A DNA stretch of 64,000 nt, from contig JAJZYH010000001.1 in assembly GCA_021798195.1 (NCBI GenBank), positions 80,390 to 144,389 of the forward strand, read 5' to 3'. Positions 7,279-16,540 of this stretch are shown piece after piece. How positions within the stretch are numbered: the first letter of the stretch is position 1; every line of letters starts with the position of its first letter. The notes beneath the pieces were generated by a model. It was not told the DNA's origin. It ran no database searches and saw only the letters and a list, made by a program, of their open reading frames with translations. A program made the position numbers and the translations under genes. Source of the stretch: Thermoplasmata archaeon (GTDB lineage: Archaea; Thermoplasmatota; Thermoplasmata; Lutacidiplasmatales; UBA184).

Positions 7279-8319
7279 TCACGTGGGCGCATTGCCCACC
7301 CCCACATTGGTGAGGAGGAGAACCGTGGTCAGGCTGAAGTCGTTGACGTTGGGGACCACCACGTAGACTTCCATGGGGGTCGTGGGTCCGGCGGCCTGGC
7401 AGGTGGCCGGGTTGTACTCCTGCGAGGAACTCGGGGGTGTCGTGGCGACATCTGTGCCGGCGGGCAGGACAAAGACGAAGGGAGATTGATAGGGGGACCC
7501 GGGGGTAGAACCGGCAGGGTTGGCCGAAAGGGTGGTGTTGTAGAAGCGTGCCCACGCACAGGGCAGCGTGGTCTCCATGGTGATGTTCACCTGGATGCCG
7601 TTCGCGGATTCGCTCGAGTAGGATTGGGTGCCCAGGAGAGTGGTGTACACCTGGTCGGTGCCCGTGGAGGTGCTCGACGTATCGTTCCCCTGGACCCGGA
7701 ACAGGACCATGGACAAGGAGGTGTTCGTCCCGGTATGGGAGAAGGAGACCGAGGGGGTGAACAACATGACCTCCCCGGTTCCGGTGGGTGAGGAGGAGAT
7801 GACGGCGTCCTGTTCGAAGGTGTATTGGATCGGGGTGAAGTAGCGGTCCGGGAGGTACATCCGGATGATCCCCGTGGACGCATTCTGGTAGAAGTTCGGA
7901 ACGTCCTGCCGAGTCCCCTGGGGTCCGATGGAGTCCAGCGGGAACGAAATGTTGGTGTAGAGCCCCAGCGAGGTGGAGAAGGTCAGGATCCCCTGGGTGG
8001 GCTGGGCGAAGACGGGGACGCCCTCCGAGCGCATGGTGATGGGATCCACGACGCTATGCCCCGCCTGGCCGTCCAGGACCAGAAGGTCCACGTCGTGCTT
8101 CATCTGGGCGAACTGCGACGACACGGTGATGGAGAACTGGCTCTCATTGTCGGTCATCCACAGGGGAAGGTACTGGGTCAGGAAGATCCCGAAGATGCTC
8201 AGGAAGACCAGAAGCGCGAGGAGGGTCCCGATGACCGCCGCCACGGCCCTCCGGTCCCCGCGGAAACGGCCCCGGCGATGGCGTCGCCAGAGTGACCGCG
8301 GTCCGAAGGGGGGTTGCAT
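7279..8319 (-). CDS. archaeal type IV pilin-like protein with class III signal peptide
   Basis: The N-terminus RGDRRAVAAVIGTLLALLVFLSIFGIF matches the archaeal pilin N-terminal (RAVSPVIG-type) domain. The remainder is Ser/Thr-rich with many N-x-S/T sequons. I prefer the ATG at 8319 because the TTG at 8361 in the ORF track lies inside the putative TATA box. Confidence 0.6.
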   Translation of the reverse strand: MQPPFGPRSLWRRHRRGRFRGDRRAVAAVIGTLLALLVFLSIFGIFLTQYLPLWMTDNESQFSITVSSQFAQMKHDVDLLVLDGQAGHSVVDPITMRSEGVPVFAQPTQGILTFSTSLGLYTNISFPLDSIGPQGTRQDVPNFYQNASTGIIRMYLPDRYFTPIQYTFEQDAVISSSPTGTGEVMLFTPSVSFSHTGTNTSLSMVLFRVQGNDTSSTSTGTDQVYTTLLGTQSYSSESANGIQVNITMETTLPCAWARFYNTTLSANPAGSTPGSPYQSPFVFVLPAGTDVATTPPSSSQEYNPATCQAAGPTTPMEVYVVVPNVNDFSLTTVLLLTNVGVGNAPT

Positions 8320-8358
8320 TCGCGCCGCTCCCTCGAGACGGTTGCACCGGGAGAGCGA

Positions 8359-8368
8359 CAATTAACTA
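8359..8368 (-). promoter_or_regulatory. TATA-like box upstream of the pilin-like gene
   Basis: Minus-strand TAGTTAATTG is an isolated AT-rich decamer in GC-rich DNA, about 40 nt upstream of the ATG at 8319. Confidence 0.35.
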
Positions 8369-9077: not shown

Positions 9078-10274
9078 TCAGGTTCGGATTCCCGAAGGGA
9101 GGGCATCGCCCGCGGGGGAGGCCCTCCGATCCCTCCGGGGAATCTCCCGGGCTTCTTCGTGCATCGGGTCGACGGAGTGGCGGGCCTCCCGGAGGAGAGC
9201 GGCGTATCTCGTCCGGTCCGCGGATTCCACCGCTCCCCGCAGGTCCTTCAACGACCGCTCCAGTCGATTGAAGAGATTGGGTGCGGTGGGATTCACCGAC
9301 TGGATGTCGTACGAGAGGTCCGGGCTCTCTGCCATCACGTTCCGGGCGGCGTCAAGATGCCGGCGTAGGGAGGCCGGTGCACAGGTCCGTACGAGGGTCG
9401 GGTCTTGGCCCGATCGCGCCAGGGCGAGGCCCAGGATCAGGCTCAGGGCATGGGGGAGCGCCAGGGCATCCCCCATGAGGGGGTCATGAGCTTCCAGGGG
9501 GAGGAAGGAGATGGAAAGGGAGCTGGGGGCGAAGAGCGAGGCCGCCCGGAGCGCCGACGGGCGGTCGCCACAATCCATCACCAGGAGCTTCTCGCCTTCC
9601 AGGGTCCTCACGTCCGGCCCGAAGAGGGGGTGGACGCTGGAGAGGTGGAACCCGTGCCGGATCCCCCGGTGGATCCATGGGAGGAGCGGGGCCTTGAACG
9701 AGAGGACATCGAAGATGAGCGCCTCGGTCTCGGTGGCGAAAAGGGAGCGATAGATCGCCCCCGCCGAGCGCATGGGGGTGGCCACGATGATCACCTCGGC
9801 ATCCTGCGCCGCCCGGCCCAGGTCGGAGTGAACGGTCACTTCGGGAGCGGAACGATCCGATCCCCGGGGGTCCACTACCCCCACCCGATGGCCCAGGGTC
9901 TCCAGGAACTCCCGCAGCCAGCTTCCCATGCGTCCCAGCCCCCCCACGATCAGAACGTCCGATTGGCGGGGAGGGGACGAGCGGTGCCCCTCGACCCTCT
10001 CCTCCGCATGGGTGGATTCCTCCAGGAGCCACGACGCCAGCCGGGCGGCTCGGCGGGGGTCCACATGGTCCTTTGCCAATCGCTTCTTCCAGCGTTCCAG
10101 GGTGGCCGGCTCCGTGCCGTACTCCCGTCGGGGAAGGTTCAGATCCCGTTTGAGTTCCCCCAACCGGTGCGCGAGGGCCAGCCGGCGTGCGATGGCCTCC
10201 AGAACGGCCTCGTCCGCCCGGGCGATCTCGCCACGCAACCGGATCAATTGATCCCTGCGGGGATCGGACGCCAT
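9078..10274 (-). CDS. tyrA: bifunctional chorismate mutase / prephenate dehydrogenase
   Basis: 398 aa. N-terminal AroQ-type helix LIRLRGEIARADEAVLEAIARRLALAHRLGELK. This is followed by a Rossmann motif VLIVGGLGRMGSW and the prephenate dehydrogenase core (SVHPLFGP). Confidence 0.75.
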   Translation of the reverse strand: MASDPRRDQLIRLRGEIARADEAVLEAIARRLALAHRLGELKRDLNLPRREYGTEPATLERWKKRLAKDHVDPRRAARLASWLLEESTHAEERVEGHRSSPPRQSDVLIVGGLGRMGSWLREFLETLGHRVGVVDPRGSDRSAPEVTVHSDLGRAAQDAEVIIVATPMRSAGAIYRSLFATETEALIFDVLSFKAPLLPWIHRGIRHGFHLSSVHPLFGPDVRTLEGEKLLVMDCGDRPSALRAASLFAPSSLSISFLPLEAHDPLMGDALALPHALSLILGLALARSGQDPTLVRTCAPASLRRHLDAARNVMAESPDLSYDIQSVNPTAPNLFNRLERSLKDLRGAVESADRTRYAALLREARHSVDPMHEEAREIPRRDRRASPAGDALPSGIRT

Positions 10275-10295
10275 GGTCGAGAACAGGTCTCCACC

Positions 10296-10303
10296 CTATA
10301 TTT
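10296..10303 (-). promoter_or_regulatory. TATA box for tyrA (leaderless)
   Basis: Minus-strand AAATATAG is centred about 26 nt upstream of the ATG at 10274. Confidence 0.4.
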
Positions 10304-10347
10304 GCCCAATACACGAGGGGACCCCGCGAAACTTCGGGGGGAGAACC

Positions 10348-10357
10348 AAACTTAAAG
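10348..10357 (+). promoter_or_regulatory. TATA-like box for tRNA-Gly
   Basis: AAACTTAAAG lies about 30 nt upstream of the tRNA 5' end. Confidence 0.4.
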
Positions 10358-10383
10358 ACCCCCCGGTTCTCGGCCGATGCCAA

Positions 10384-10455
10384 GCGGTCATAGTGTAGTG
10401 GTTAGCACGCAAGGTTCCCAACCTTGCAACCCGGGTTCGAATCCCGGTGACCGCA
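10384..10455 (+). tRNA. tRNA-Gly(CCC)
   Basis: Hand-folded cloverleaf: GCGGTCA/TGACCGC acceptor stem, CAAGG-TTCCCAA-CCTTG anticodon arm, CCGGG-TTCGAAT-CCCGG T arm, discriminator A. No encoded CCA. Confidence 0.85.
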
Positions 10456-10549
10456 TCGTGGGCTCCTCCGGGGGTCATCCCCCCGGGAGGCAGATCCCCC
10501 TCGTCGAGCCGATCCCCGAATGGAGGTGCCTCGGGGAACCTCCCGGTCC

Positions 10550-11965
10550 TCACTCGATACAGCAACTCATCCGGCTCATGTCGTGGTGGAACGACTCCGC
10601 CGCGATCTTGAGGGACTCCGAGAACGTGGGGAAGGTGTGGACCGTGTCGATGATGTCCTCCACCGTGAGGCTCCCCCGCAGGGCGTAGGCCGCCGCGTGG
10701 ATCATGTCCGCGGCGATGGGGGAGACGATGTGGACTCCCAGCACCCGGCGGGTCTTCGCATCCACCACCATCTTGAGGATCCCCCGGGTGTCCCCCACGG
10801 TGAGCGCCTTCGGGATCCGTTCCATGGTGATCACCCGGCACTCGCACTGGAAACCCCGCCGGACCGCCTCGGCATCCGTGAGCCCCACGCTGGCCACCTG
10901 GGGGTTCGTGAACACGGCATGGGGCACCAGATCGTAATTGATGGACCTCGTTTCCCCCTGGAGGGCGTTCCGCGCGGCGAGGGCCCCTTCCTTGGCCGCC
11001 ACGGTTTCCAGCGCCATCCGGCCCACCACGTCCCCCGCGGCCCATATCCCGGGCACGGAGGTCTCTAGGTGGGGGGAGGTCTTCACGAATCCGCGATCCG
11101 AGAGCCGAACCCCGGCCTCTTCGAGGCCGATCCCGGCGGTGTTGGGGCTCACCCCCGTGGCCACGAGGATCTCGTCGCCCACGCACGTGAGGCTGCGGGA
11201 ATCGTTCGTGAGGTCGCACACGACCCGGCCCTTCTTCCTCTGGATCCGCTTGACCCGGGCACCGGTGTGGACCGTGATCCCTTCCGAGGTGAGACAACGG
11301 GTGATCTCCTCGGACACCTCGGGTTCCTCGAACGGCAGGAGCCGCGGGGCGGACTCGAGGACGGTCACCGTGCTCCCGAAGTGGGAGTACATCTGGGCGA
11401 ACTCGAGGCCCAGGGGCCCCCCTCCCAGCACCATGAGCTCCCCGGGGAGATCCTTCCGACGCATCAGCGATCGGTTGGTGAGGTATCCGGCCTCCTCGAG
11501 CCCCTCGATGGGGGGGACTTTGGGGGAAGAACCGGTCGCGAGGAGCACATGCCGTCCCCGCAGGGTGCGTCCGCGGACCGTGACCGTGCGGTCGGGGCGG
11601 AGGGTGCCCGTGCCTTCAATGTACTCGATCTTGCGGTCGGTCAACACATCCTGATAATTCGTCTTCCGGAGGCGTCGGACCATCCGGTCCTTGTTGGCGA
11701 TGGCCTCCGGGAAGTCGCAGCGGACCGCCCCCGGAAGGTTGCATGCGAACTGCGGGCTCTTCCGGTAGAAGTACTCGTTCCCGGCCTCGAGGAGGAACTT
11801 GGAGGGGATGCACCCCACATTGACACAGGTCCCTCCCATGGGAAGCCCCGCATTGACCATGGCGGAACGGAAGCCCAGTTCGTCGGCGCGGATCGCCGCG
11901 GCGAACGCGGCGGCACCTCCCCCAAGGATCACCAGATCGAAATCGTCTCCGGAACGCGGCATCAT
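10550..11965 (-). CDS. merA: mercuric (Hg2+) reductase, core form without an N-terminal HMA domain
   Basis: 471 aa. Redox-active GGTCVNVGCIPSK. FAD and NAD Rossmann motifs. C-terminal vicinal cysteines ...FHHDMSRMSCCIE, which distinguish MerA from other class I disulfide reductases. Confidence 0.85.
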   Translation of the reverse strand: MMPRSGDDFDLVILGGGAAAFAAAIRADELGFRSAMVNAGLPMGGTCVNVGCIPSKFLLEAGNEYFYRKSPQFACNLPGAVRCDFPEAIANKDRMVRRLRKTNYQDVLTDRKIEYIEGTGTLRPDRTVTVRGRTLRGRHVLLATGSSPKVPPIEGLEEAGYLTNRSLMRRKDLPGELMVLGGGPLGLEFAQMYSHFGSTVTVLESAPRLLPFEEPEVSEEITRCLTSEGITVHTGARVKRIQRKKGRVVCDLTNDSRSLTCVGDEILVATGVSPNTAGIGLEEAGVRLSDRGFVKTSPHLETSVPGIWAAGDVVGRMALETVAAKEGALAARNALQGETRSINYDLVPHAVFTNPQVASVGLTDAEAVRRGFQCECRVITMERIPKALTVGDTRGILKMVVDAKTRRVLGVHIVSPIAADMIHAAAYALRGSLTVEDIIDTVHTFPTFSESLKIAAESFHHDMSRMSCCIE

Positions 11966-12010
11966 GGATGGGTGAGATGCCCGTCATCATTACGCCTCGC
12001 GGAGCCGGCG

Positions 12011-12042
12011 GCCACCTGCTTTCTCTGAGGAAACCAGGTGGC
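12011..12042. promoter_or_regulatory. 8-bp perfect inverted repeat in the merA / thioredoxin-like divergent intergenic region (candidate operator)
   Basis: GCCACCTG (12011-12018) and CAGGTGGC (12035-12042) are separated by 16 nt. The repeat lies between two divergent start codons. Confidence 0.35.
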
Positions 12043-12061
12043 GGATCGGCCAGCGAACCGA

Positions 12062-12069
12062 GATAAAAG
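12062..12069 (+). promoter_or_regulatory. TATA-like box, with a downstream GGAGG, for the thioredoxin-like gene
   Basis: GATAAAAG lies about 45 nt upstream of the ATG at 12112. GGAGG at 12103-12107 is a possible SD sequence. Confidence 0.35.
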
Positions 12070-12111
12070 AGCGACCGCATCGTCCTGCTGTCCCGCGGAG
12101 CCGGAGGATTC

Positions 12112-12837
12112 ATGACCCCCACGGATGCACGACGTCCCACCAGTGAGAAGTGTCCCCACTGCGACGTCCGAGTTCGGCGAGATCGCTTGCTGACGCACGT
12201 CGCCCGGGTCCATCCGGGTCAATCCCTGGAACCGGAGACGGTGAAGCGGATCCGTAAAGCCTCCCGTGAGGCGTCCCGAGGAAGCCGCACCCCGCGGGCC
12301 CCCCTCCCTCGACGATGGATCTTTGCGGGAGTGGGCGTGGTCATCGTAGTGCTCGTGGCCTACGTGATCCTCCATTCTTCCGCGTCGGGTCTCGCCCGGA
12401 CCGGGGGAGCCGCCCCCGATTTCACATTCACCGGGCTCTCCGGGAATCCTCACTCCCTGAGTTCCTACGAGGGGCACCCCCTGGTGCTCTGGTGGGTGGC
12501 GACCTTCTGCTCCGGCTGCAGCGAAGGGACGTCGTACTTTGCGCAGAACTATTACTCCCAGTACCACACGGAAGGGGTGACCCTGCTGGAGATCGAGGAC
12601 TACAACGACCTGGGCCAACCGGGACCCAGTATGAGTTCGTTCGCCACATCGAACGGGTACAACGGTCAGGCGGGGTGGGTGATGGGCATCGGGTCTGCGT
12701 CGGGCACCCAATCGTACAATCCCAATGGGTACCTCGATGTGTACTACGTCATCAACGCTCAGGGGAACATTGTGTCCAGCGGCCAGGTACTCTCCTCCTC
12801 CTTCTCCACGGCTCTGCAGCAAGCGGTGTCCTCATGA
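12112..12837 (+). CDS. membrane-anchored TlpA/redoxin-like thioredoxin-fold protein with an N-terminal C2H2-spaced zinc-finger motif
   Basis: 241 aa. CPHCDVRVRRDRLLTHVARVH (C-x2-C-x12-H-x4-H), then one TM helix (WIFAGVGVVIVVLVAYVIL), then APDFTFTGLSG...PLVLWWVATFCSGCSE with a CxxC motif. Confidence 0.7.
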   Translation: MTPTDARRPTSEKCPHCDVRVRRDRLLTHVARVHPGQSLEPETVKRIRKASREASRGSRTPRAPLPRRWIFAGVGVVIVVLVAYVILHSSASGLARTGGAAPDFTFTGLSGNPHSLSSYEGHPLVLWWVATFCSGCSEGTSYFAQNYYSQYHTEGVTLLEIEDYNDLGQPGPSMSSFATSNGYNGQAGWVMGIGSASGTQSYNPNGYLDVYYVINAQGNIVSSGQVLSSSFSTALQQAVSS

Positions 12838-13070
12838 CGGTCCCGGTGGGATTGGAGTCTCCGCGGGGGCTGGCGTCTCGACGTCGGGCGATTCCCTTCC
12901 TTGCGGGAGGGGTGGCCCTGCTCGTCCCCTTGGCCGTGGCCCGGGCGTTCTGCTGCCATCTTTCCCTGCTCCAGAGCCGTCTCATCTTCTCCTGGCTCCC
13001 GCCTGCCGGTTTGCTCCTCATCGGGATTGCCGTGGGCGTCTGGTGGGGGTCCCGATGGCCGAGACCATGA
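12834..13070 (+). CDS. small two-TM membrane protein with a vicinal Cys-Cys pair
   Basis: 78 aa. The ATG overlaps the upstream TGA (ATGA). AIPFLAGGVALLVPLAVARAFCCHLSL, then LLLIGIAVGVWWG. Confidence 0.5.
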   Translation: MTVPVGLESPRGLASRRRAIPFLAGGVALLVPLAVARAFCCHLSLLQSRLIFSWLPPAGLLLIGIAVGVWWGSRWPRP

Positions 13071-13666
13071 CCGGGGCCGTGCATCCCCGCGGGATGTTTC
13101 CAGAGGCGACCGTCCTTCGGACGGTGTTTTCGTCGCCGGCGTACCTTCTCGCCTACCTTCTCTCGGCCCCCCTGGTCGCGGGAGCCTATCTGATCCTGCT
13201 GCCCGGGCTCATCCTGGGCTCCTACCAACCCTGGGTCCTCCGGTTCCTTACAGTCCCGGAGGCGGCGTTTGCTGTCGCGATGGGGGTCCTCTTCCCCGCC
13301 GTGGTGCTGGCGAACCTCCATCTCTGGAGGCATCCCGGCTGCGCGCCCGTGAGCCGCCACGCCCGGACCGGCACCCTGGGGGCGCTCGTCATGAGCGTGA
13401 TCCCCAACGCCCTCTGCTGCACTCCCATCATCCCGGTGGTTCTGGCCGCATTCGTGTCCGGTGCCGCCCTGGTGTCCATATCCGCTCCCGTGCAGTATTT
13501 CCTCGGCACCTACGCTCCGGTCCTGTACCTCGTGTCGGCCCTGGCCCTGTGGGCCTCTCTGCGCGTCGCTGCCCGGGCGACCCAGCGGACCCAGGTGCCG
13601 GGATCGGCGGGCTCTATGGACGAGTGCGGATGCTCCCCCCTCGACGAGGCTATGAAGGATGGTTGA
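13055..13666 (+). CDS. four-TM membrane protein with an intramembrane Cys-Cys pair and a C-terminal C-G-C motif
   Basis: 203 aa. Overlaps the previous ORF by 16 nt. GTLGALVMSVIPNALCCTPIIPVVLAAF sits in a TM helix. The cytoplasmic tail contains MDECGCSPLDE. Confidence 0.6.
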   Translation: MAETMTGAVHPRGMFPEATVLRTVFSSPAYLLAYLLSAPLVAGAYLILLPGLILGSYQPWVLRFLTVPEAAFAVAMGVLFPAVVLANLHLWRHPGCAPVSRHARTGTLGALVMSVIPNALCCTPIIPVVLAAFVSGAALVSISAPVQYFLGTYAPVLYLVSALALWASLRVAARATQRTQVPGSAGSMDECGCSPLDEAMKDG

Positions 13667-13708
13667 CGTCATGGGAAGGACCAACCAGGCGGTTTGCCCC
13701 CTCTCACC

Positions 13709-14293
13709 ATGCCCTGCACCCACCCCGGACCCATGGCGGTGACCCGCGCCCGCTTCCCCGATGCCGCGTTCCTGGCCGACGTACTTTCTGAGGGCCAGAA
13801 CCGGGTGGGCTTCCTGGTCCTCGGCGTGGTCATCACCTTGTCCTATCTCGCCGTGTTCGACACCGTGGATGCCCATGTGGGGCTGGGGGCGCCCCTCACC
13901 GTGGAACAGATCCTGGATTCCATCGCCATCGGGGCGATGCTCTCCCTCTACCTGGTCTCGCACTCCCATTGCGTTCGGCAGGGCGTTTGCGCCCCCGTCC
14001 GGAACGTAGCAGGCTCCCGTTCCCTGGTCGCCGGGACACTGGTGGGGGGACTTCCGGCCCTGCTGGTGGGATGCTGCGGTTCGTTGGTCCCCGCAGTGGC
14101 ACTGGGTCTCGCGGGCACGATCTCCGAGACCGGGATCCTCCCTGCCCTTTCCGTCGCCGCAGTCGTGGCGCAGTTGATGGCGCTCCTCTTCATCGCAATC
14201 CCTCTCCACAGGCTGGCACGACTCTGGCAGTGGGACCTCTCGGGGAACGGGACCCCTCGGACGGGGAAGGAGGTCCCTGAAGACGGTGAATGA
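13709..14293 (+). CDS. membrane protein with an intramembrane Cys-Cys pair (paralogous core to the previous gene)
   Basis: GTLVGGLPALLVGCCGSLVPAVALGL parallels GTL...P..L.CC...(I/V)P.V of the 13055 gene. Also contains HSHC...C. The start is uncertain: TTG 13694, ATG 13709 or ATG 13733. Confidence 0.6.
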   Translation: MPCTHPGPMAVTRARFPDAAFLADVLSEGQNRVGFLVLGVVITLSYLAVFDTVDAHVGLGAPLTVEQILDSIAIGAMLSLYLVSHSHCVRQGVCAPVRNVAGSRSLVAGTLVGGLPALLVGCCGSLVPAVALGLAGTISETGILPALSVAAVVAQLMALLFIAIPLHRLARLWQWDLSGNGTPRTGKEVPEDGE

Positions 14294-14474
14294 ATTCTCT
14301 CTTCGGAACCACCGCGGGGTCAGGTGCCCGCCGGGAAGGCTTCCCGGAGACGAGATCGAGTTCGCGATCCGGGACCAGTGGACATCCTTCTTCCAAGAGA
14401 AACGGGTGGGAAGAGGTCCGGGCGGATGCACAACGTTCCTCCATTTTATGAGGGCCGGGAAGGTGGCGTATCGC

Positions 14475-14930
14475 ATGGGTGAAGAGCCCCAACGCGGAAC
14501 GAAGGCGAAGGAATCGGCCACAGGATTCACGAGGCAGGAACGTGCCGCCATGAAGGACCTCATCCGGGAGCGCTCCGTCGTGTGGGGGAGGAACCGGGAC
14601 GATGACGACCGGGTAGTGCGGGCCAAGATCGACCAGATGCCCGAACCAGACCGGTCCATGGGGAAGAGGATCCACGAACTCATCGGGACCCGCGCTCCCG
14701 TCCTCGCGCCGAGGCTCTGGTACGGGATGCCGGCGTACACCAAAAAGGGGGACGTCGTTTGCTTCTACCAACCGGCCAGCAAATTCAAGGCGAGGTACGG
14801 AACGCTCGGCTTTACGGATCACGCGAAGCTCGACGAAGGGAAGTTCTGGCCCACCGCATTCGCACTCACCGGCCTGACCGCCACCACGGAAGCGACCATC
14901 GCACGTCTCCTCAAGAGAGCGGTGGGTTGA
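14475..14930 (+). CDS. DUF1801 (YdhG-like) domain protein
   Basis: LWYGMPAYTKKGDVVCFYQPASKFKARYGTLGF is typical of the family. An internal ATG was chosen, so the start is uncertain. Confidence 0.55.
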   Translation: MGEEPQRGTKAKESATGFTRQERAAMKDLIRERSVVWGRNRDDDDRVVRAKIDQMPEPDRSMGKRIHELIGTRAPVLAPRLWYGMPAYTKKGDVVCFYQPASKFKARYGTLGFTDHAKLDEGKFWPTAFALTGLTATTEATIARLLKRAVG

Positions 14931-16250: not shown

Positions 16251-16376
16251 CCAATGGACGACCCCTCCCTCCCTACAAAATCCCTTCGGTACGCATGAGA
16301 GGGCGGGGTCCCTCTCCGGACCGACCCGAGGCAGAGGCGCAACATTATGAGCCATAACCTTGTGAGGCGCCTCGTT

Positions 16377-16449
16377 GGGCCTGTAGCTCAGTCGGTAGAG
16401 CAGGCGGCTCTTAACCGCAAGGTCCAGGGTTCGAATCCCTGCAGGCCCG
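16377..16449 (+). tRNA. tRNA-Lys(CUU)
   Basis: GGGCCTG/CAGGCCC acceptor stem, anticodon loop CTCTTAA, CAGGG-TTCGAAT-CCCTG T arm, discriminator G. Confidence 0.85.
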
Positions 16450-16540
16450 TCCGATTTTGGCAGGGCTTCGCCCATTTCGTTCGCGCTCTCCTCGAAGGGG
16501 GTTCGGCTCAGCCGTCACTTGGATTGTCACAATGGTCACG

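Follow-up and report, generated by a model that had tools for sequence, protein, structure and literature searches.

A candidate Hg(II) capture-and-import module encoded beside merA in a Thermoplasmata archaeon and in Acidimicrobiales-type mer loci

In the Tn501/Tn21-type mercury resistance (mer) systems, an outward-facing two-cysteine protein, MerP, and a membrane protein, MerT, are encoded beside the mercuric reductase gene merA. For Archaea, Boyd and Barkay found genes for Hg(II) transport and binding to be missing, save for MerP in Ferroplasma (PMC3466566), reviews of mer evolution treat archaeal operons as “merA only” (PMC3466566), and a geothermal metagenome study describes Thermoplasma scaffolds with MerA and MerP only. 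Here we describe a locus at positions 10,550 to 14,293 of a 64,000-nucleotide stretch (the window) of contig JAJZYH010000001.1 from a Thermoplasmata archaeon (assembly GCA_021798195.1), where merA is divergently paired with four genes, g1 to g4. We consider it probable that these genes specify a relay that captures Hg(II) outside the cell and imports it to feed MerA, composed of a new branch of the Mer superfamily and a thioredoxin-fold partner. Full-text literature searches, within open-access coverage, found no account of the g1-g3 module. What appears to be new is a Mer-superfamily architecture combined with a non-homologous, thioredoxin-fold replacement of MerP, common to acidophilic archaea and Acidimicrobiales, with a function that is predicted from sequence.

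The central protein of the module is encoded by g3 (13055-13666, plus strand), which overlaps g2 by 16 nucleotides and encodes 203 amino acids with four predicted transmembrane (TM) helices and both termini inside (N-in/C-in). A vicinal Cys-Cys pair (CC), C121-C122 (nucleotides 13415-13420), is found in TM3 in the motif PNALCCTPIIP, within IPNALCCTPIIP; the further cysteines are C96 in the cytoplasmic loop, and C191-G-C193 of a C-terminal ECGC motif. Word-indexed searching of 5.8 billion clusters returns 24 relatives, and a profile search of 1.84 billion representatives gives a family of 204 representatives at E <= 0.001, with 128 at E <= 1e-10. Those members that carry a name are all “hypothetical protein” from “Candidatus Thermoplasmatota archaeon” or “Acidimicrobiales bacterium”. 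No model in Pfam or NCBIfam covers the family, and scanning 115 members one by one against Pfam yields only chance-level matches (Bap31 in 4, MerT in 2 and DsbD_2 in 2).

The alignment of 115 diverse members (A3) has only two invariant columns, and these are the two cysteines of the TM3 pair; P124 and P127 are nearly invariant, and the consensus around the pair is LPS-x-LCC(T/S)P(I/V)(I/V)P(T/S)LL. Since the pairs are invariant in the 115 g3-family members and also in the small families of g2 and g4 described below, the CC pairs of the three membrane proteins are not chance occurrences. Lys and Arg residues are concentrated on one face of the membrane: their count is 3.1 at the N-terminus, 1.9 in the approximately nine residues of loop 2 and 2.3 in the tail, against 0.8 in outer loop 1 and 0.5 in outer loop 3, and the predicted topology of four helices with both termini inside is clear. 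No member has a cysteine in an outer loop, while 112 of the 115 have at least one in cytoplasmic loop 2 or in the tail, 67 have at least two in the tail, and 25 carry a second CC there. As read from the alignment, this layout, with cysteines on the cytoplasmic side and none in the outer loops, is the design of MerT and MerF.

Structure prediction adds some detail. The AlphaFold2 model of g3 built on A3 (predicted local distance difference test (pLDDT) score 79, predicted TM-score (pTM) 0.70) has a TM3 helix that is predicted to be broken at C122-T-P124. Foldseek comparison of this model with the PDB has a best E-value of 0.78 and matches neither a CcdA-like nor a MerF-like fold, a negative result that says little on homology because MerF is small and derived from nuclear magnetic resonance (NMR). 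The sole match of a PDB profile search with the g3 family, an MBH subunit at E = 0.93, was rejected as chance.

Profile-profile comparison does point to known mercury transporters. Alignments of MerT and MerF (A7 and A8) were built from annotated merT and merF genes on six plasmids, and hhalign of A3 gives a probability of 94.5% with MerT (E = 8e-8, 80 columns) and 92.8% with MerF (E = 4e-7, 61 columns). CC is paired with CC, helix two of MerT/MerF with g3 TM4, and the cysteines in the tail of g3 fall on the C-terminal CC of MerF or the C76/C82 loop of MerT. Reversed templates score 15% (MerF) and 5% (MerT), twenty column-shuffled templates do not exceed 0.4%, and when the CC columns of A3 are masked the probabilities are still 87.7% for MerF and 71.5% for MerT. 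The weak Pfam MerT match of one member (P0136) also falls on the TM3-TM4 region. This protein and two others (P0067 and P0104) are natural fusions, in which a MerT/MerF-like hairpin with an LLCCxGP motif lies N-terminal to a g3-like domain; the hairpin of P0067 also carries RRRRRACCEP. We therefore place g3 and its paralog g4, with moderate confidence, in a new four-TM branch of the Mer superfamily that would consist of a MerF-like hairpin preceded by two extra helices. The first-pass annotation of this DNA, made from the sequence alone, had suggested that the gene set is a non-homologous replacement of the bacterial importers, which is probably wrong for g3 given the profile probabilities of 93-94%, but holds for g1, with its thioredoxin rather than HMA fold. 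The family also appears to be separate from characterised plasmid-borne transporters: a tblastn search of 72,556 PLSDB plasmids, pMM23 included, with a bacterial g3-like protein (h226) has no match, so that the g3 family is absent from known mer plasmids and distinct from MerT and from the MerH of pMM23.

The partner of g3 is encoded by g1 (12112-12837, plus strand), a protein of 241 amino acids with a Cys2His2 finger-like motif, a single membrane anchor and a thioredoxin-fold domain of the Redoxin/TlpA/ResA-like kind. It passes the gathering cut-offs of both AhpC-TSA (38.0 bits against 26) and Redoxin (37.1 against 26.6), in agreement with its initial description as a TlpA/redoxin-like protein with a CSGC motif, and matches the NCBIfam ResA subfamily at E = 1.3e-10, although under the full-length cut-off; its relatives in the PDB are ResA, TlpA-like and GPx-like proteins. 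The CxxC motif, C133-S-G-C136 (nucleotides 12508-12519), is within the thioredoxin-fold domain and is invariant in ten diverse homologs, as are a Trp that precedes it by six residues and P204, by its position the probable cis-Pro. The hydrophobic anchor covers approximately residues 68-87 and is preceded by an Arg/Lys-rich stretch, which by the positive-inside rule places the finger in the cytoplasm and the thioredoxin domain outside. The finger-like motif, CPHC-x11-H-x4-H, is N-terminal (residues 14-34, window positions 12151-12213, plus strand) and was not mentioned by the first-pass annotation. In the ten-homolog comparison it is present in every archaeal copy, that of a 39%-GC archaeon included, and absent from the bacterial copies. 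The archaeal MerA proteins next to finger-bearing g1 are without NmerA. Pfam scanning of g1-g4 finds no HMA match, i.e. no MerP-type GMTCxxC domain, and g1 can thus only be a functional analog of MerP, as its predicted fold is not that of HMA proteins. In the vicinity of the module, genes for cytochrome maturation or Sco proteins were not seen.

The pairing of g1 with g3, and of both with merA, recurs in other genomes. Loci were dereplicated at 90% identity into 36 clusters, and MerA was counted as bona fide where it aligned through the C-terminal CC. A g1-like redoxin adjoins the g3-family gene in 32 of the 36 clusters (three of the other four are contigs cut at the gene), and a bona fide MerA is found at a distance of 3.6 kb or less in 20 clusters overall and in 16 of the 25 that have flanks of 8 kb or more. 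Co-occurrence with merA elsewhere had been proposed as a check, and in other genomes the linkage is strong and is seen in different arrangements. Scanning the genome collection with alignment A2 identifies five loci in metagenome-assembled genomes (MAGs) of Thermoplasmata, and no more. All four with upstream DNA (L002-L005) have the order merA (minus strand) / g1 - [g2] - g3, with g2 in L002 only, and their MerA proteins are from two clades, 73-75% and 43-44% identical to the MerA of the window. Another locus (L061) keeps g1-g2-g3, with mobile-element genes upstream and the contig end 2.6 kb away. On a 39%-GC archaeal contig (L053), MerA and ArsR genes on the minus strand diverge from a g3-like gene with the tail motif SCC, followed by a g1-like gene with the Cys2His2 finger.

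The first-pass annotation presented the module as archaeal, a restriction that has to be dropped, as the majority of the copies found come from mer loci of Acidimicrobiales type. In this conserved cluster, represented by 36 metagenome loci and by the distant homologs P0022 and P0023, the g3-like gene is followed by one or two genes for TM-anchored redoxins (WCSSC or GCASC). The cluster also encodes a MerA, in many cases bearing NmerA, a BlaI-like repressor with an M48 protease, and an ArsR regulator. MerB and a second MerA are each present in some of the loci, and a MerA paralog that lacks the C-terminal CC and a MerT-like protein of 98 amino acids are each frequent. In one locus (L045) the gene order is MerA-MerH-MerT-g3-like.

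Several side observations concern these and other mer loci. The BlaI/CopY-like repressor (Penicillinase_R) and the membrane M48 peptidase (BlaR1-like) occur together, as a conserved pair, in the interval that separates MerA from the g3-redoxin module (L006 4727-6108 and the majority of loci of Acidimicrobiales type, namely L010, L015, L018, L023-L036 and L044), and may be a proteolytic metal-sensing switch for Acidimicrobiales mer loci. The MerA paralog, which we call pyr449, has about 450 amino acids, keeps CxxxxC but not the C-terminal Cys pair, and scores 325 bits with the MerA model TIGR02053, under its cut-off. It recurs inside mer loci of Acidimicrobiales (L006 6126-7475, L018, L021, L028, L029 and L036), Mycobacterium (pMM23 10305-11657) and Rhodobacterales (Phaeobacter plasmids L059 and L060), where its sole annotation is “NAD(P)/FAD-dependent oxidoreductase”. 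The 276-residue protein P0155 begins with NmerA and some 100 residues from the start of the MerA FAD domain, and then runs on in frame into a g3-like protein, of which it has the C-terminal half. Whether this is a deletion fusion or a chimera of assembly, it places merA and a g3-like gene side by side. On an Agrobacterium plasmid with a minimal merF locus that is without merA, a gene for a “GDCCVxC domain-containing (seleno)protein” overlaps the end of merF (L058 2674-2898).

The two other membrane proteins of the locus, g2 and g4, are taxonomically much more restricted. The g2 gene (12834-13070, plus strand), the start of which overlaps the stop of g1 (ATGA), encodes 78 amino acids with two hydrophobic segments and the motif AFCCHLSL, containing the invariant pair C40-C41 (nucleotides 12951-12956). 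It has just four homologs among the 5.8 billion clusters, all with CC, and is also found between g1 and g3 in L002 and L061. In the conserved core, g2 and its ortholog from L061 have 10, 3 and 31 differences at codon positions 1, 2 and 3, with 25 synonymous and 12 non-synonymous codon changes, a pattern of purifying selection from which we conclude that g2 is a real gene. Comparison of its profile with those of MerF, MerT and g3 detects no similarity.

The g4 gene (plus strand) begins some 42 nucleotides beyond g3. Its open reading frame (ORF) opens at TTG 13694 (199 amino acids), and the true start is likely to be ATG 13709, where homologs (P0038) begin, giving 13709-14293 and 194 amino acids. 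Its motif LLVGCCGSLVP includes an invariant VGCCG with the pair C127-C128 (199-residue numbering; nucleotides 14072-14077), and loop cysteines are found at C100 and C106. Only three close relatives are found, the subfamily alignment (A6) has eight sequences, and CC is invariant. BLASTP of g3 against g4 gives E = 5e-6 and comparison of their family profiles 99.7%; the two genes, in which a common core had been noticed by eye, are true paralogs. The pair of g3 (with ECGC) and g4 recurs near merA in L049 and L050, the former having merA and a second g1 in addition. Above threshold, g2, g3 and g4 have no match to Pfam MerT (PF02411), Transport_MerF, MerC or MerE, or to the NCBIfam Mer models. The four genes had been put forward together as one module; judged by its distribution, the conserved core is g1 plus g3, and g2 and g4 are lineage-specific add-ons.

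The enzyme that the module would feed is encoded by merA (10550-11965, minus strand), a mercuric reductase core enzyme of 471 amino acids with Pyr_redox_2 and Pyr_redox_dim domains. Its identity was clear from the first and is borne out by a score of 537.2 bits with TIGR02053, the NCBIfam MerA equivalog, for which the cut-off is 454.45. The translation carries the redox-active CVNVGC, the CxxxxC of the FAD domain, within GGTCVNVGCIPSK, and ends in MSCCIE, with the vicinal pair Cys468-Cys469, a C-terminal CC that is also kept in the MerA orthologs beside g1 and g3. There is no N-terminal HMA/NmerA domain. The positions assigned to all the genes agree with the ORF listing and translation. The divergent intergenic region between merA and g1 (11966-12111) is 146 nucleotides long, against the approximately 145 estimated beforehand, and the four plus-strand genes starting from there were said to form a tightly overlapping string, which is accurate for g1/g2 and g2/g3 but not for g3/g4. 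Within the intergenic region there is an inverted repeat, GCCACCTGCTTTC / GAAACCAGGTGGC, at 12011-12042, with 13-nucleotide arms that are 92% complementary. This repeat is a candidate operator, and the A/T-rich GATAAAAG found at 12062-12069 is a candidate TATA-like box. Only the inner TTTC..GAAA of the repeat recurs, in L002 and L005, and a conserved operator was rejected as its full palindrome is absent between merA and g1 of other loci, leaving it as a candidate only. The lack of other Mer homologs in the window also holds: tblastn with MerT, MerP, MerF, MerE, MerD, MerR, MerB, MerH and two ArsR-type regulators finds none in the 64 kb (all E > 0.1, with E = 0.17 for MerP).

Directly past the 3' end of merA are a gene for a bifunctional chorismate mutase / prephenate dehydrogenase (minus strand) and tRNA-Gly(CCC), together at 9078-10455. 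With tRNA-Lys(CTT) at 16376-16452, the mer cluster has a tRNA gene on either side, the two being spaced by about 6 kb, and this could be the mark of an integration site. The ORF at 14286-14930, which overlaps the end of g4 by 8 nucleotides and has a weak DUF1801 match (E = 0.011), is probably outside the module because it has no counterpart downstream of the module at any other locus. Further away, the 360-residue product of an ORF on the minus strand (7279-8361) has an N-terminus that resembles archaeal signal peptides of class III (type IV pilin-like), RGDRRAVAAVIGTLLALLVFLSIF, in keeping with the window being archaeal DNA.

If the module is an importer, extracellular Hg(II) would be bound by the outward-facing CxxC of g1, taking the role that MerP has in bacteria, and would pass by thiol ligand exchange from g1 to the vicinal cysteines of g3, within its kinked TM3. 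At this step g3 would probably be joined, in the present lineage, by g4, its paralog, and by g2, the small protein with CC. The next stop would be the cytoplasmic cysteines, i.e. C96 of the g3 loop, the C-terminal CGC and possibly the finger of g1, from where Hg(II) would reach the C-terminal Cys-Cys of the NmerA-less MerA, and be reduced to volatile Hg(0). Binding of Hg(II), the direction of transport, the order of the hand-offs and the parts played by g2, g4 and the finger are all predictions of this model.

A number of observations weigh against such a role. No member of the g3 family passes the Pfam gathering thresholds of MerT or MerF, the best E-values being 0.005-0.008 for a few members, with just 2 of 115 at E = 0.005 on MerT and far under its gathering score, and the homology of g3 with Mer proteins rests on profile-profile scores over 60-80 hydrophobic columns. 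By sequence, g1 is a TlpA/ResA-type reductase, and the known job of such proteins is electron transfer, not metal binding. The 64-kb window has no mercury-responsive regulator gene detectable by tblastn, and the loci sampled stem from few lineages, so that the counts given above are not of independent events. Not all members are near merA: five loci (L027, L044, L020, L017 and L061) are without MerA in the DNA available, one member (L047) has a histidine kinase, a response regulator and HtrA as neighbours, and the P0039 subfamily (L051 and L052) is beside DUF929 (GCPYC), VKOR and a Cys-rich protein, with no merA. The first of these last two loci is on a 66%-GC archaeal contig (L051 2691-5873), where a g3-family member of the MICCG subtype follows DUF929, VKOR and a 276-residue protein with CCTP, CCCWCW and CCGG motifs; with transposases of IS66 and Tn3 type on its flanks, this merA-less group of genes is a mobile thiol/metal cluster.

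Because a few distant members are thus found in non-mer contexts of thiol redox or envelope stress, we keep a redox role as the main rival explanation, one that is possible but in our view doubtful. The module would then be an extracytoplasmic thiol-reducing or thiol-protecting system, with g3 as a CcdA/DsbD-like conduit that passes reducing equivalents through its CC pair and cytoplasmic cysteines to keep g1 reduced, and g1 repairing or protecting the thiols of surface proteins; its recruitment to mer loci would be owed to the attack of Hg(II) on exposed thiols, and not to import. The character of g1, which is of Redoxin/ResA/TlpA type with CxxC and a conserved cis-Pro position, fits this explanation. 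So do the company of the P0039 subfamily, the envelope-stress two-component system and HtrA next to the L047 member, and the weak DsbD_2 matches of g3 (E = 0.068) and of 2 of the 115 members. Also, pyr449 is the divergent neighbour in several Acidimicrobiales loci and could be a dedicated reductase. However, the DsbD_2 score of g3 is only 13.5 bits against a cut-off of 24.9, DsbD itself is not matched, and neither Pfam, the PDB profile search nor Foldseek detects significant sequence or fold similarity to CcdA or DsbD, so that the membrane proteins fall outside the thiol-disulfide and cytochrome-maturation families that the first-pass annotation had named as one possible refutation of its proposal. 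CcdA and DsbD have six TM helices with a single Cys on each of two of them, whereas g3 has four and one vicinal CC. The profile similarity of g3 goes instead to MerT and MerF, and the second CC of cytoplasmic tails and the fusions to MerT/MerF-like hairpins are traits of mercury transporters. As for pyr449, it was rejected as a dedicated partner of g3, since the same type of oxidoreductase is found in g3-less mer operons (pMM23 and the Phaeobacter plasmids) and is therefore not tied to g3.

It is unlikely, although worth stating, that g1 is a two-faced, membrane-spanning Hg chaperone in an import system shared horizontally by acidophilic archaea and Acidimicrobiales. Its outer CxxC would capture Hg(II) instead of MerP, and its finger would take the metal from the CC relay of g3, g4 and g2 and hand it to the NmerA-less MerA, with thioredoxin fold and zinc-finger motif both repurposed as sites of Hg(II) hand-off.

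We think it improbable that the module is a membrane-bound Hg(II) sensor or sequestration device and not an importer, signalling through the g1 finger in Archaea or the BlaI/M48 pair in Acidimicrobiales, or simply buffering the metal. There is no regulator gene beside merA in the window, all archaeal g1 copies have the finger-like motif, the divergent promoter region has an inverted repeat, and BlaI-like/M48 pairs are conserved beside the module in bacterial loci, all of which would suit a sensor. However, the repeat is conserved in part only, bacterial g1 homologs have no finger, ArsR-type regulators are present in L053 and in bacterial loci, and a cysteine layout like that of MerT and MerF suggests through-transport. 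A single membrane-tethered Cys2His2 finger is, moreover, an unlikely sequence-specific DNA binder. Other possibilities taken together deserve very little weight, and a fortuitous neighbourhood of unrelated membrane and redox genes, for which the minority of loci without merA within reach might speak, is effectively refuted by the dereplicated tally, with recurrence in two domains of life, varied gene orders and MerA clades, and Rosetta-stone fusions with Mer hairpins.

If the module is indeed a relay for Hg(II) import, it fills the gap left by the missing archaeal Hg importer, adds a family to the Mer transporter superfamily beside MerT, MerC, MerF, MerE and MerH, and provides a case of a thioredoxin-fold protein doing the job of MerP. 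Such a result would moderately surprise specialists, and it makes the question of whether archaea lack Hg importers directly testable. Because its members are labelled “hypothetical protein” and are covered by no Pfam or NCBIfam model, the unnamed family is missed when metagenomes from acidic, geothermal and mine-drainage habitats are surveyed for mercury cycling, and a family model would improve the annotation of mer loci in Thermoplasmata's phylum, Thermoplasmatota, and in Acidimicrobiales. The proteins are small and defined by their cysteines, are easily tested in E. coli, and could become parts for mercury biosensors or for bioremediation at low pH.

Compared with described systems, the module is like MerT/MerP in that an outward-facing two-cysteine protein and a membrane protein are encoded beside merA. 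Both g3 and MerT have a helix with vicinal Cys-Cys and a Pro after it, as well as another Cys pair on the cytoplasmic side; in the hhalign match of 94.5%, g3 TM3-TM4 correspond to TM1-TM2 of MerT, and the g3 tail to its C76/C82 loop. However, g3 has four TM helices with CC in TM3 and is under the Pfam MerT threshold, whereas MerT has three, the first of which carries CC. MerP is a soluble HMA-fold protein, unlike g1 with its membrane anchor, thioredoxin fold and CxxC. The two-TM protein MerF, for which there are NMR structures, resembles g3 in its two-helix hairpin, with LCC(F)TP in the first helix and Cys or CC in the cytoplasmic C-terminal tail. Unlike MerF, g3 has two extra N-terminal helices, no match to Pfam Transport_MerF, and a 9-residue insertion in the outer loop with a conserved SAPVQYF. 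MerH of Mycobacterium marinum (pMM23), a CC-dependent Hg(II) transporter of mer operons in Actinomycetota, is a four-helix protein like g3, but its CC is in TM1 (FATLCCLGV) and the two are separate families. The combination of a Cys-bearing polytopic protein with a membrane-anchored, outward-facing thioredoxin-fold CxxC protein is also that of CcdA/DsbD with ResA/TlpA/CcmG; these systems are tied to cytochrome c maturation, whereas the g3 module is tied to merA. The Sulfolobus merRHAI-type operon, like the window, combines an archaeal merA, the product of which has no NmerA, with small Cys-containing accessory proteins. It encodes an ArsR-type MerR and a TRASH-domain MerH chaperone, while the window has neither a TRASH-domain protein nor an ArsR gene, and, unlike the window, it has no membrane CC protein or redoxin.

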